64,000 bases of DNA from Alistipes sp. (GTDB lineage: Bacteria; Bacteroidota; Bacteroidia; Bacteroidales; Rikenellaceae), in contig JAFTWZ010000039.1 of assembly GCA_017465055.1 (NCBI GenBank), positions 9,851 through 73,850 on the forward strand. The letters are read 5' to 3'. Positions 9,884-26,736 of the stretch are shown in pieces (the stretch's first letter is position 1; each line of letters opens with the position of its first letter). Below the pieces are notes generated by a model. The model worked only from the letters and a program-made list of their open reading frames with translations, was not told where the DNA came from and did no database searches. The translations under genes and the position numbers were made by a program.

Positions 9884-10537
9884 TTACTTATTTATGGTGT
9901 AGGCCTCGACTAATTCGGCTATCTTCCGCATCTCCGAGACAGGGTTTTCGGCTCGTAATACACTGCCGCTTAGCGCTATGCCATCAACGCCTACGTCCAG
10001 GAGCAACGGGATATCACGCTCTTCGATACCACCTATGGCCACAAGGGGCATCATAATATTTTGAGCGCGCATCTGCGCTATAATCGCACGATAGCCCTCG
10101 ATGCCAAGCATTGGAGCAAGTCGCTCCTTAGTCTGCGTAAAGCGGTATGGCCCACAGCCGAAGTAGTCGGGCACGACACCACGCATATGCGCCTCGATAT
10201 CGGCCATAGTGTTGACCGTAGCGCCAATGATATACCCCTCGCCGAGGAGCGCGCGAGCCTCGGCAACCGACATATCCTCTTTGCCCAGATGCACACCATC
10301 TGCACCAATGCGCTTTACCAGCATCACATCGTCATCGATGATAAACGTGGCGCCATAGTCCCGACACATATCCCTTACGACTATGGCCGTCTGCTCCATA
10401 AGGCTCGTCTCCACCCCCTTCATACGTAGCTGTACCCAGCGACAGCCACCCTCCAAAGCCATACGCGCAGAATCGAGATAGGTGTAGCGATCGGTGTAGT
10501 GGGTGATAAACTGCAATCTATAACTTAGGCTCTTCAT
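9884..10537 (-). CDS. thiE: Thiamine-phosphate synthase
   Basis: WVQLRMK, FIIDD, ADGVHLG..D, GP.RFT.TK, VAIGGI. Confidence 0.93.
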   Translation of the reverse strand: MKSLSYRLQFITHYTDRYTYLDSARMALEGGCRWVQLRMKGVETSLMEQTAIVVRDMCRDYGATFIIDDDVMLVKRIGADGVHLGKEDMSVAEARALLGEGYIIGATVNTMADIEAHMRGVVPDYFGCGPYRFTQTKERLAPMLGIEGYRAIIAQMRAQNIMMPLVAIGGIEERDIPLLLDVGVDGIALSGSVLRAENPVSEMRKIAELVEAYTINK

Positions 10538-11411
10538 ACGTCTGCATCGTTAGTGGATTAAACAGGTGATTCACAGGGCCGAAGCCACGGCCTATCGCTA
10601 TATCGGCGCCAGCAGCAATCGCAGCGCCTATATACTCCTTCGCCGCGCCTACAGCCTCCTCGAGACTAAGGCCACGAGCTACGTATGCAGCAATGGCCGA
10701 CGAGAGTGTGCACCCCGTGCCGTGAATATTGCGCGTAGAGATGGTTCGATGCGAGAAATAGCTCTCCAAGATACCCTCTGCAGTGTTGCGATATAGGATA
10801 TCGGTCTTCGCATCGCCCTGCTCGTGACCACCTTTAAGCAGCACGGCTCGAGCACCGAGGTCTATAAGATAGTGGGCCGCAGCGCGCTTCTGCTCGGCAG
10901 TGGATAGCGGCATAGAGGTAAGAGCCTCCATCTCGGGGATATTGGGCGTTACGAGACAAGACATAGGCAACAATCGCCGCTTAAGCACCTTCTGCGCCTC
11001 GACCGAGAGCAGCCTATGTCCGCTACTTGAGACCATAACAGGGTCGAGGACTATGGGGATAGAGTATCGCGCAAGAGTGTCGGCAACAGCAGTAGCAACC
11101 TCTACATTCGCGAGCATACCAATCTTTACCACTCGTGGAGCGATATCCTCCATAACGGCGATGATTTGGCTCTGCACCATCTCGGCAGGTAGGGGCATCT
11201 GCGAATAGACACCCTCGGTATTTTGTGCCGTGATGGCCGTGATGGCCGTAGCGCCATAGACACCAAGAGCAGAGAAGGTCTTCAGGTCGGCCTGCACCCC
11301 TGCACCTCCCGAGGAGTCCGAGCCTGCAATAGATAGCGCCACACAGTAGCGCCTTTGCGATTTACAACGGGGATAGTCGCACCCCTCGACGTCGTTTACT
11401 TTTAGTTCCAT
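10518..11411 (-). CDS. thiD: HMP/HMP-P kinase
   Basis: SIAGSDSSGGAGVQADLKT, KIGML, DPVMVSSSG, TPNIPE, KGGH, HGTGCTLSSA. Start codon approximate. Confidence 0.95.
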   Translation of the reverse strand: MELKVNDVEGCDYPRCKSQRRYCVALSIAGSDSSGGAGVQADLKTFSALGVYGATAITAITAQNTEGVYSQMPLPAEMVQSQIIAVMEDIAPRVVKIGMLANVEVATAVADTLARYSIPIVLDPVMVSSSGHRLLSVEAQKVLKRRLLPMSCLVTPNIPEMEALTSMPLSTAEQKRAAAHYLIDLGARAVLLKGGHEQGDAKTDILYRNTAEGILESYFSHRTISTRNIHGTGCTLSSAIAAYVARGLSLEEAVGAAKEYIGAAIAAGADIAIGRGFGPVNHLFNPLTMQTYEEPKL

Positions 11412-11450
11412 ACTCTCTTCGGTTAAAAGTTCGACAACGGGGTGCCCGAA

Positions 11451-11489
11451 AACAAGAAAACGCATACCCTGCAATATGGGGTATGCGTT
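11451..11489 (-). terminator. Riboswitch expression-platform terminator
   Basis: 11-bp stem AACGCATACCC/GGGTATGCGTT followed on the minus strand by TTCTTGTTTT. Confidence 0.8.
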
Positions 11490-11500
11490 ATGATATTATC

Positions 11501-11574
11501 CACAATTCCTACGGCAGTACTAACTGCATCAGGTTCGAGGGTATAATCTCAGCCAATCAAGGCACCCCTTTGTC
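11501..11574 (-). ncRNA. TPP riboswitch aptamer
   Basis: Minus strand GACAAAGGGGTGCC..GGCTGAGATTATACCC..GAACCTGATGCAGTTAGTACTGCCGTAGGAATTGT matches the THI-box consensus, upstream of thiD. Confidence 0.96.
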
Positions 11575-11579
11575 TTATG

Positions 11580-11611
11580 CAAAGATAGGTTAAATTTTCC
11601 GAAACGCCAAA
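11580..11611 (-). promoter_or_regulatory. thi operon promoter (-33/-7)
   Basis: TTTG-N20-TATCTTTG immediately 5' of the aptamer. Confidence 0.8.
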
Positions 11612-11671
11612 TATATTCTCGCAAAACTATCCATAATGGTATGTAATGTCGTTATAATGAGGATTTGTTTC

Positions 11672-12034
11672 GGCTCAGTCTGAAATTCTGGTGGAGTAAT
11701 AAATGATATCAATACGTCATCGCGAAGAATTGCATCTACGAGCGGTAGTGATACCCACGTGGGTCTATGCAATTCTGTGGCGATCTTCATTTGTTTATAC
11801 TTCCGCACTGATACGTAAGAGTTGTAATCACAATTCGCACGGCACACACGACTATCAATCACACTCCGCACGGCCCTAGAAACAGCGGAAGACCCCCACG
11901 TCGGAGCATAGTTGCGTTATCACTCTCCGCACACTCATACTTGCTCCTCCTCGGGGTGACGATATTTATATTTCGTTTAGCTACTATTTTTGCACGATTT
12001 TTTTTCAATCCCCACCGGAATTTACGACTGAGCC
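11672..12034. mobile_element. MITE copy 1 (363 bp, non-autonomous, ISL3-like ends)
   Basis: TIRs GGCTCAGTCTGAAATTCTGGTGG / CCACCGGAATTTACGACTGAGCC. Flanks TTTGTTTC / TTTGTTTT (7/8 TSD). About 91% identical by hand alignment to the reverse complement of 26281-26642. Confidence 0.9.
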
Positions 12035-12163
12035 TTTGTTTTTCTCGGTTTTGCAGAGATTCTCTAACTTTGGCAACAATATTATGCCCCTTTTACAATA
12101 ATCTTCGACACTCCACACCGCCTCGAGGGGTGAAAGTTGCAGACTTTATATTATCTTTGCCGT

Positions 12164-12715
12164 ATGAAAGAGACAAATGTTGTAGTGCGCCAGGCAAGGC
12201 GCGAAGATGCAGAGCTTATAGCCACGGCGGTATGTATGGCCGTAGGCTACGACACGTCACACCCCATATACTCCGTATTTCTCACCCTCGCCGCGCGCGA
12301 GGTGTCGCAGTATAGCTATCGCAACGCACTTATAGGCGAGATAGGCGGCAGAGCTGCAGGCGCTATCGTCAGCTACGATGGTGCTCGGCTTGCTGAGCTA
12401 AGAGAGCCTATATATCCACTCCTCGAGGAGCACCTCGGCAGCATCCCCGAAATCGAGGATGAGACCGACGACAGCGAGTACTACTTAGACTCAGTAGGTG
12501 TGCTTAGCCAGTTTCGCGGTCGCGGCGTAGGTGCGGCACTACTCTCTGCCGCAACAGACAAGGCCTTTGGCGAAGGCTATGAGCGTGTGGGCCTTATTGT
12601 CGACTACAACAATCCGGCGGCGGAGCGTCTATACGCCTCGCTGGGCTTCGAGCGCGTAGGCACACGCCTATTTCTCGGGCACAAGATGTGGCACTTGCAA
12701 CGTACCAAACAATAA
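12164..12715 (+). CDS. GNAT family N-acetyltransferase
   Basis: YYLDSVGV..QFRGRGVG..LL, N..A.RLY.SLGF. Confidence 0.9.
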   Translation: MKETNVVVRQARREDAELIATAVCMAVGYDTSHPIYSVFLTLAAREVSQYSYRNALIGEIGGRAAGAIVSYDGARLAELREPIYPLLEEHLGSIPEIEDETDDSEYYLDSVGVLSQFRGRGVGAALLSAATDKAFGEGYERVGLIVDYNNPAAERLYASLGFERVGTRLFLGHKMWHLQRTKQ

Positions 12716-12721
12716 AAACAT

Positions 12722-13024
12722 ATGAAACGTATAAAGATTACCGTAATGCGCATAACGGAGTACCACGACCTTATGGCCCAGTACGAAAATCCCATAGAGC
12801 ACGCCTGCAATATGCGCCTCGGCCAGAGCTTCATTGTCGAGGAGTGTACCAAGCCCGAGGGGATGTGCGACAGCGCGTGGGAGACGCTCCTCCCCTTTGT
12901 CAGTGAGCTGGCTGGTGGCGGCGGTAACTTCTTCGATGGCTGGATGCGCAATCCTCACTCTGCGATGCTATCGTGCAACGACGGCTTCCGACCGGTAAGT
13001 TTCTACGTGGAGGTTATCGAGTAG
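12722..13024 (+). CDS. TIGR04076 family protein
   Basis: KITV.R, KPEG.C..AW, SCNDGFRPVSF. Confidence 0.8.
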   Translation: MKRIKITVMRITEYHDLMAQYENPIEHACNMRLGQSFIVEECTKPEGMCDSAWETLLPFVSELAGGGGNFFDGWMRNPHSAMLSCNDGFRPVSFYVEVIE

Positions 13025-26147: not shown

Positions 26148-26280
26148 CTGTTTCACGATACAAATGTAGTAAAAAAAAGCCAATAACCGCTCTTTTTGTG
26201 TAAAAACGGAGGGGGTAAGGGTAGGCGCGACTACGACACTAAAGGGTAGCTCGCGCCTAAGGTAGCTAAAAGAGTTTAAG

Positions 26281-26642
26281 GGATCAGTCGTAAATTCCGG
26301 TGGGTACTGAAAAAAATCATACAAAAATAGTAGCTAAACGGAATATAAATATCGTCACCCCGAGGAGGAGCAAGTATGAGTTTGTGGAGTGTGATAACGC
26401 CACTATGCTCCGACGTGGGGGTCTTCCGCTGTTTATAGGGCCGTGCGGAGTGTGATTGATAGTCGTGCGTGCCGCGCGGAGCGCTATTGCAACGCTTACG
26501 TATCAGTGCGGAAGTATAAACAACGGAAGATCGCCACAGAATTGCATAGACCCAAGTAGGTATCACTACCGCTCGTAGATGCAATTCTTCGCGATGACGT
26601 ATTAATATTGTTTATTACTCCACCGGAATTTACGACTGAGCC
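26281..26642. mobile_element. MITE copy 2 (362 bp, inverted relative to copy 1)
   Basis: TIRs GGATCAGTCGTAAATTCCGGTGG / CCACCGGAATTTACGACTGAGCC (22/23). Perfect 8-bp TSD AGTTTAAG at 26273-26280 and 26643-26650. Confidence 0.93.
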
Positions 26643-26736
26643 AGTTTAAGGAGTATAGTGACAACGCCACAGCCACACACACCTACTGGTCTCTCTGAAA
26701 ACTCTCTGAAACCCCTTCAAGCGCCATTGCACTCGC

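Follow-up and report, generated by a model that had tools for sequence, protein, structure and literature searches.

A MITE with ISL3-family ends and a pair of 74-nt CGTC-tagged hairpins in Alistipes sp., and its relation to the hairpins of an ssn-like locus

A stretch of 64,000 nucleotides from Alistipes sp. (hereafter the window) contains two inverted copies of a repeat of about 363 bp. An earlier note on this DNA had described the repeat as an inverted dimer of REP-like hairpins nested in a DDE-type MITE, and had proposed that it was either two nested mobility systems or a mobile structured RNA. The locus raises the question of how tagged hairpins of the REP kind came to lie between the ends of an insertion sequence, what spread them through the genome and why their stems vary so little. 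The answer that we favor, with a probability of about 0.8, is that the repeat is an ISL3-derived non-autonomous MITE carrying a long CGTC REP/SRM hairpin pair that was derived from the array of the ssn locus. The evidence for this answer consists of the anatomy of the element, its ISL3 parentage, its target duplications, the homology of its hairpins to the ssn-adjacent ones and the covariation of their stems. The window is located on contig C34 of an assembly of 2.13 Mb and 49 contigs that is 84% complete (G000 in the coordinates below).

The element and its ISL3-type ends

The layout of the element is left inverted repeat, unit A, spacer, reverse complement of unit B and right arm with the right inverted repeat (Table 1). 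The boundaries of copy 1 were corrected to 11672-12034, with inverted repeats of 25 bp and target duplications of 8 bp. The element has no coding capacity. Its interior holds two 74-nt CGTCA...TCTTC hairpins in opposite orientation, separated by a spacer of variable length. In both copies in the window, units A and B were present as they had been described, each 74 nt long, with a common scaffold (CGTCA-4 nt-GARG...GTG-4 nt-TCTTC) and with swapped basal stems, which are TCGC/GCGA in unit A and CCCC/GGGG in unit B. The sequence of unit A is CGTCA-TCGC-G-AAGAATTGCAT...ATGCAATTCT-GTG-GCGA-TCTTC and that of unit B is CGTCA-CCCC-GAGGAGGAGCA...TGCTCCGAC-GTG-GGGG-TCTTC. The inward homology between A and B (TCTTCCKYTGTTTATA), which had also been noticed, runs about 15 nt past each hairpin, so that the whole unit is about 89 nt. 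Among 19 sequences of each unit, the CGTCA tag did not vary in unit A and hardly varied in unit B, and the tail was TCTWC. With the CGTCA tag, the stem directly after it and the short tail, the units are CGTC-tagged REP-like hairpins, as the earlier note had them. The TGATAC in the loop of unit A (window 11749-11754; columns 35-40 of alignment A1) was invariant in 19 sequences from 10 genomes, though the surrounding loop varies, and CTGATAC (window 11811-11817) recurs about 35 nt downstream in the spacer of most species. These may be candidate protein-binding motifs.

Table 1. Features of the two MITE copies, in window coordinates
Feature	Position	Strand	Remark
Left target-site duplication, copy 1, TTTGTTTC	11664..11671	.	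7/8 match to 12035-12042
Left terminal inverted repeat GGCTCAGTCTGAAATTCTGGTGGAG	11672..11696	+	95.7% identity over 23 nt to the ISL3-family IS end of G239
Unit A, 74-nt CGTCA-tagged hairpin	11715..11788	+	unit B homology reaches ~11803
Spacer, variable number of ~31-nt subrepeats (CACTCCGCACGG...CTATCAAT), conserved CTGATAC motif	11789..11887	.	
Unit B, 74-nt CGTCA-tagged hairpin	11888..11961	-	
Right subterminal segment, relic of ISL3 transposase ORF 3' end (...ATIFA stop)	11965..12009	+	
Right terminal inverted repeat (reverse complement GGCTCAGTCGTAAATTCCGGTGGGG)	12010..12034	-	exact match to ISL3 TIR pattern
Right target-site duplication, copy 1, TTTGTTTT	12035..12042	.	read from sequence
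MITE copy 2, inverted	26281..26642	-	333-nt inverted repeat, 92% complementary to copy 1
Unit A of copy 2	26526..26599	-	
Unit B of copy 2	26353..26426	+	
Target-site duplication, copy 2, CTTAAACT (minus-strand reading)	26273..26280 and 26643..26650	.	perfect 8-bp direct repeat

The end pattern GGCTCANTNNNAAATTCCGGTGGGG was found in 19 of the 251 genomes sampled from the genus. In the sister genomes G210, G239 and G173, inverted TIR pairs 1.42 kb apart enclosed a 314-aa ORF and a small upstream ORF. The 314-aa ORF matched PF01610 (DDE_Tnp_ISL3) with an E value of 1.2e-51, and the full IS of G210 was bounded by the perfect 8-bp duplication TATATTTG. Nucleotides 1-23 and 294-363 of the MITE aligned to the ends of the G239 IS. 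The identity between the right 70 nt of the MITE (294-363) and the end of this IS was 90%, and the aligned region included the last transposase codons (...ATIFA stop). The remaining positions 24-293, which form the hairpin cargo, did not match anywhere in the G239 IS. Alignment of the interior to ordinary transposase-gene ends, named in the earlier note as an outcome that would refute its interpretation, was seen for the right 70 nt only; the hairpin cargo does not align. An outward promoter (TAnnTTTG) considered in the right arm was dropped, as the sequence there corresponds to the 3' terminus of the transposase ORF.

Perfect 8-bp duplications also flanked copy 2 of the window, one copy each on C42 (ATTAGTTG) and C7 (GTTTATCT), the copy at C6:9441 (CAAACACC) and one copy of G198 (CTTTTACG), which confirmed insertion of the DDE type. 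The frame is, as proposed, a DDE-type MITE, and its ends belong to the ISL3 family. When the window's own 84%-complete assembly was searched with the G239 transposase, no ISL3 transposase was matched, a result that applies to this assembly and not to the organism, and no full IS was found between TIR pairs of the same assembly. A lone TIR at C31:105611-105635, considered as the end of a full IS, belonged to a MITE with different cargo. IS copies often fail to assemble. Given the missing transposase match, the 84% completeness and this behavior of IS copies, the element is no more than a candidate for current mobility. A comparison with empty sites did not yield any pre-insertion site: the flanks of copy 1 were on different contigs in every relative that had them, and none of the relatives was close enough for copy 2 to be compared. 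Thus, the claim of mobility rests on the target duplications.

The element matched 51 regions of the assembly, corresponding to about 50 copies or loci, and redundant contigs accounted for only one pair among the 51 regions. The two members of this pair, G000:C43:11831-12145 and G000:C47:14997-15300, are one locus (MITE array and flank) that was assembled twice; the assembly is slightly redundant and the contamination of the bin was reported as 4.5%. The spacer lengths of 47 A/B pairs clustered at 68, 99, 130 and 161 nt, equal to one to four copies of the subrepeat of about 31 nt. The cargo of unit A, spacer and reverse complement of unit B (A-spacer-B') was also found two or three times in tandem, with a linker of about 52 nt that is a decayed short CGTC hairpin. 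The outer ends were of at least three variants, GGCTCAGTCTGAAATTCTGGTGGAG, GGATCAGGCGATAATTCTGGTGGAG and GGGATCAATCAGTAATTCTTGTGGAG, which are homologous to each other. Given that the two-unit array at C35:19011-19690 is flanked by an 8-bp duplication matching at 7 of 8 positions, the arrays transpose as one piece.

The MITE copies were intergenic. On a crude ORF map, 13 of 29 were between convergent genes, compared with 12% of all intergenic regions. In the window, copy 1 is between divergent genes, and the promoter region beside it is that of a TPP riboswitch (RF00059, 64.5 bits, E = 6e-12). The riboswitch, at window 11489-11579 on the minus strand, is immediately left of copy 1 and precedes a 318-aa ORF (10518-11474, minus strand). 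Located some 90 nt upstream of the riboswitch, copy 1 may be within this promoter region or close to it. The neighboring stretch 10900-11417 was 100% identical to G180:C30:1-518, the end of a contig of another species, while other shared regions were 74-77% identical, suggesting either recent transfer or cross-contamination of bins.

Many MITE copies were flanked by a second repeat family, which consists of short blocks (CCCTTTAGC / CTAAAGGG) and of tandem 8-9-nt units (GGTTAGAGA, ACAGAGAC); one of its sites is at about 26190-26272 of the window. At G000:C31:105340-105635 (L042:2841-3136), this family fills the interior of an element with the same ISL3-type ends. Thus, ISL3-type ends carry more than one kind of cargo. 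At G000:C36:10125-10581 and G000:C31:127237-127592, a complete type-1 MITE starts inside the unit A loop of a truncated type-2 element. Both type-1 elements start at the identical position (...GCATCTAATWGC|GGCTCAG...), which could mean either that the two loci share one composite or that insertion into the hairpin loop is preferred.

Constancy and covariation of the hairpin stems

Folded as single-stranded DNA, unit A had an energy of -16.3 kcal/mol (z = -4.05), which was not reached by any of 200 shuffles, and unit B had an energy of -13.8 kcal/mol (z = -2.64). Among 48 copies of unit A and 43 copies of unit B, the rate of differences per site was 0.2-0.5% in the arms (48 nt) and 7-8% in the central 26 nt, so that the avoidance of the main stems by differences, first noticed between the two copies of the window, holds over all these copies. 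Shared variants were found at 1 of 96 arm positions and at 21 of 52 centre positions (about 45 copies). Private mutations, which occur in a single copy, were only 1.5-5 times rarer in the arms than in the centre, and for unit B the frequencies were 0.23 per site in the arms and 0.35 in the centre, a difference that was not significant. As the contrast comes mostly from shared variants, the constraint is seen along the lineages leading to the copies and not in each inserted copy.

For comparison across species, units A and B were collected with sequence-only profiles, which made the sampling independent of pairing. The main stem of unit A was 96.7% paired genus-wide and contained three compensatory pairs (UA/CG, AU/GC and GC/AU), and that of unit B was 96% paired with five. 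The covariation score was reached by 0 of 500 shuffles, and registers slid along the stem were all less than 48% paired. The main stems are hence kept by compensatory change, with eight covarying pairs across the two units. Cells in which only one side had changed (G-U type) numbered 3 in unit A and 0 in unit B, compared with 15 and 20 in which both sides had changed. The near-absence of G-U pairs points to hairpins or palindromes of DNA rather than RNA.

Other parts of the proposed structure did not hold. The sub-hairpins of the three-way junction ascribed to unit A were well formed in few copies, including copy 1, and were only 55% and 69% paired across the genus. An Rfam scan of window 11000-12800 (E <= 1) returned only the neighboring TPP riboswitch and no family on the element. 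With no Rfam match, almost no G-U pairs and an unconserved junction, the idea of a mobile structured RNA loses its footing. A kink-turn reading of the GA/GTG bulge was also rejected, because by inspection the bulge is on the wrong strand.

Hairpins beside an ssn-like GIY-YIG gene

CGTC-tagged REPs occur in Bacteroidetes among other hosts and apparently have no dedicated transposase (Di Nocera, De Gregorio and Rocco, BMC Genomics 2013; PMC3733652). SsnA, a GIY-YIG protein of 94 aa, binds the NTS/SRM hairpin when the DNA is single-stranded and cleaves immediately upstream of the hairpin. Duplex DNA, RNA and the opposite strand are not substrates of SsnA, and the size of SRMs was described as 20-50 nt (Chenal et al., Nat Commun 2025; PMC11893778). 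The published SRM pattern, HGTCWYN(0-2)YYVSBRHN(0-5)WNVSBRGN(0-2)RNCYNB, had 0 matches in the element, and it had 3 matches genome-wide compared with 9 in the control. A simple scan of the whole genome for tagged hairpins whose stem is unbroken over 8 bp did not reveal any enrichment (252 versus 220 in the control), and it misses units A and B because of the bulge after 5 bp. The only short-form pair that it picked up in this genome was a classical one at G000:C48:1068-1158, in which a 38-nt hairpin (CGTCATTCCGAGGGAGCACAGCGACCGCGGGAATCTC) and a 37-nt hairpin (CGTCATTGCGAGAGCCTTTAGGCTCGTGGCAATCTT) face each other tail to tail.

The only intact small GIY-YIG gene of the genome, at G000:C9:40708-40986, encodes a protein of 93 aa that matched PF01541 over residues 4-75 (E = 5.9e-16) and no other family or domain. 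Its nearest solved structures were those of small UPF0213 proteins, and the NCBIfam search did not return any meaningful family for it. A diverged A/B array begins 38 nt after the stop codon of this gene. In this array, a B type (CGTCA-TTCC...GGAA-TCTTC) is followed by a spacer and by the reverse complement of an A type (CGTCA-TTGC...GCAA-TCTTC), the whole order is then repeated, and the array terminates in a short SRM of 33 nt, CGTCA-TTGC-GATAG...GCG-GCAA-CC. Different from the basal stems of the MITE (TCGC/GCGA and CCCC/GGGG), those of the ssn-adjacent units are TTGC/GCAA and TTCC/GGAA. In this genome, units A and B were found outside ISL3-type ends at this locus only. Two other GIY-YIG matches were set aside. 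The match at C22:118705-118928 (L040:1492-1740) is a broken gene with TGA and TAA in frame and no hairpins beside it; this decayed gene has a typA/bipA-like GTPase gene on one side and an rpiB-like gene on the other. The third match is within an open frame of 716 aa and is not a small single-domain protein like that of C9.

Homologs of the 93-aa protein, with identities of 32-70%, were found in 31 of 121 sampled genomes of the genus. Their distribution was patchy and their neighborhoods differed, and nearly all of them were flanked by CGTCA/TGTCA-tagged hairpins of 29-76 nt, typically in tail-to-tail pairs of two types. For instance, one pair consists of CGTCA-TCCC-GAGGAGCGTAGCGACGTG-GGGA-TCTACC and the complement of CGTCA-TTGC-GAGG...CGTG-GCAA-TCTAC. 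Given that the basal parts of the 74-nt units match these short ssn-flanking hairpins, the 74-nt units correspond to hairpins of about 33 nt with about 40 nt added in the loop. The link of CGTC REPs with GIY-YIG proteins, made in the earlier note, is borne out by the diverged array of the same units behind the only intact small GIY-YIG gene and by the similarly flanked homologs of the genus.

Beyond the genus, homologs at about 50% identity were spread over more than 20 phyla, Sphingomonadaceae and Rickettsiaceae among the groups represented, and they had the association with hairpins that was reported for Ssn. A tagged hairpin was at most 350 nt away in 56 of 74 homolog loci, compared with 28 in the reversed-sequence control, and tagged hairpins were on both sides in 29 of 74, compared with 3 in the control. 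The corresponding figures of the Ssn paper are 71% and 42% (PMC11893778). We infer that the 93-aa protein belongs to cd10448, the Ssn nuclease family.

In G180, G198, G006 and G084, the A-spacer-B' pair was found inside ISL3-type ends, with stems compensated in a way particular to each species; in G099 and G147, it was found beside ssn and without ISL3-type ends. The gene order of G099 is that of this genome, with an M16-type peptidase gene, the GIY-YIG gene, a long B/A pair (stem TCCC/GGGA) and an O-methyltransferase gene, which suggests that the ssn-adjacent pair is the older state. No ssn homolog was found in G006, G084, G180 and G198, which are 80-96% complete. Thus, co-occurrence gives no support for dependence of the element on Ssn, and a strict dependence is spoken against.

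Origin of the element and comparison with known systems

In the explanation that we propose, the MITE is derived from an ISL3-family IS, of which it has retained both 25-bp TIRs and the last 45 nt or so of the transposase gene. An ISL3 transposase acting in trans would move it and create the 8-bp target duplications. The cargo between the ISL3 ends is a foreign tail-to-tail heterodimer of 74-nt CGTC-tagged REP hairpins, which probably originated from the array behind the small ssn-like GIY-YIG gene of the genus. The hairpins themselves would be ordinary SRMs of about 33 nt (CGTCA-4 bp-GAGG...GACGTG-4 bp-TCTAC) with a loop extended by about 40 nt. Carried in the MITE, the pair would have spread to about 50 loci, in some cases as tandem arrays of two or three units transposing as one piece. 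By analogy with SsnA of Neisseria, the Ssn-like nuclease is predicted to bind the hairpins in single-stranded form and to cut just 5' of the CGTCA tag, and the need for recognition by the nuclease may keep the arms constant in propagating lineages. Points against the explanation are the basal stems of the MITE units, which differ from those beside the resident ssn gene, the length of 74 nt, the sister genomes in which no ssn homolog was found, the negative transposase search and the concentration of the arm-centre contrast in shared variants.

The pair might also have been trapped by chance between IS ends, with no role of its own. The interior of a MITE is often arbitrary DNA, and in the C31 element described above different cargo lies between the same ends. 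The constant arms would then be the outcome of a recent burst from few sources together with hairpin-templated self-correction of palindromes, and both the private mutations of unit B, whose frequency in the arms is close to that in the centre, and the retention of the element in four sister genomes with no detectable ssn fit with this. However, both hairpin types persist in several species, with eight covarying pairs and almost no half-changed ones, the shared variants avoid the arms, and the transposition ends are far more variable than the arms of the cargo. We consider an idle cargo somewhat unlikely. The opposite extension, in which the pair is not passive and ISL3-type ends and Ssn-type hairpins form a recurring partnership, is rather doubtful. 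It would take one of two forms: the MITE would seed target sites of the nuclease around the chromosome, or the hairpins would fold the ends together in single-stranded DNA and so aid transposition. If true, such a partnership would explain why the arms stay constant as the transposition ends drift and why the pair has survived with compensatory changes in several species. It would also provide a general means of spread for CGTC REPs, which have long been described as having no transposase.

A function in RNA, as a two-way terminator or an mRNA-stabilising element of the kind proposed for REPs, BIMEs and many MITEs, would fit with the U-rich tail after each hairpin (UCUUCCUUUGUUUAUA), as the tails face inward and transcription from either side meets a hairpin and a T-rich run. 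A consensus scan flagged terminator-like sites in unit B, and the share of copies between convergent genes exceeds that of intergenic regions in general. The latter is, however, expected for any tolerated insertion, and copy 1 is between divergent genes, upstream of the TPP riboswitch promoter region. Moreover, the stems are long, bulged and AT-rich, unlike those of intrinsic terminators, and their covariation almost without G-U pairs and the lack of an Rfam family also argue against such a function, which is distinctly improbable. The remaining idea is that a RAYT or another single-strand (HUH/Y1) transposase moves the repeat as a REPIN-like element, with the inverted ends being incidental. 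It draws on the inverted doublet of tagged palindromes and on the BIME-like alternating arrays, but no Y1_Tnp (PF01797) match was found in the genome, a search that was positive in 6 of 14 control genomes, and the tag is CGTC and not GTAG. Target duplications are a signature of DDE transposition, and HUH transposition does not produce them. The duplications here are exact, of 8 bp and at the outer inverted repeats, whose ends are homologous to those of an ISL3 IS, and the ssn locus is the one place in the genome where units A and B were found free of such ends. The REPIN-like label in the RAYT sense has to be abandoned, and movement by such an enzyme is highly improbable.

The ISL3-derived MITE with hairpins from the ssn locus bears on questions beyond this genome. 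The 2025 work on Ssn did not settle by what means the hairpins multiply or what their role outside Neisseria is (PMC11893778). The element offers a concrete route of spread, in which a hairpin pair would be captured from the ssn locus between ISL3 ends and then carried to about 50 sites by ordinary DDE transposition. Ssn-type hairpins can reach 74 nt and are then invisible to the published search pattern, with which surveys would rate this gut Bacteroidales genome as free of SRMs. For annotation, such elements account for many contig breaks and intergenic repeats in such MAGs. New here are the 74-nt hairpin form, the traceable origin in the ssn locus and the modular arrays. The system as such is not the undescribed one for which the earlier note took it as a candidate, given that CGTC REPs (PMC3733652), Ssn and its SRMs (PMC11893778) and a MITE holding a REP (PMC5896051) have been published.

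Among known systems, the Ssn NTS/SRM hairpins, which are CGTC REPs, share with the units the unpaired CGTCA head, the stem directly after it and the TC tail. Similar to the units, they come as dimers in which the two hairpins differ, are scattered through intergenic regions in many copies and adjoin a single-domain GIY-YIG gene of about 94 aa, and the basal part CGTCA-4 bp-GAGG...GACGTG-4 bp-TC is that of the 33-nt hairpins beside ssn homologs of sister species. Different from them, the hairpins of this study are 74 nt and not 20-50 nt long, are missed by the published pattern and have been spread by ISL3 ends instead of as free REPs; several genomes carry the element with no detectable ssn, and activity of the nuclease is predicted. 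Similar to other ISL3-derived MITEs, the element is noncoding, is present in about 50 copies and has 8-bp duplications, a relic of the transposase 3' end and TIRs of about 25 bp like those of the 1.42-kb IS of sister species. However, its interior is not a simple deletion derivative, as about 270 nt are foreign hairpin DNA, it is modular, with one to four subrepeats and one to three cargo units, and a search of this 84%-complete assembly for the partner transposase gave no match.

The BIMEs of E. coli, the NIMEs of Neisseria and the pneumococcal BOX elements are mosaic hairpin arrays. In them, as in the arrays of this study, two hairpin types alternate in orientation, there are two types of linker and the number of modules is variable. 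However, they have no IS-derived inverted repeats with target duplications, and BIMEs, which were also mentioned in the Ssn paper (PMC11893778), pair with RAYT enzymes, of which none was found here. An outer inverted-repeat frame that holds a tagged REP or REP dimer and is spread as a unit is known from QMITE2 of Coxiella burnetii, a MITE containing a GTAG REP that serves as the target of IS1111 (PMC5896051), and from Halothiobacillus neapolitanus, in which CGTC-1 dimers are found inside 41-bp palindromes (PMC3733652). The REP of QMITE2 belongs to the GTAG class, whereas the cargo here is of the CGTC class. In H. neapolitanus, the transposase of the frame and the link to a nuclease were not worked out, whereas here the frame leads to ISL3 and the cargo to the ssn locus.
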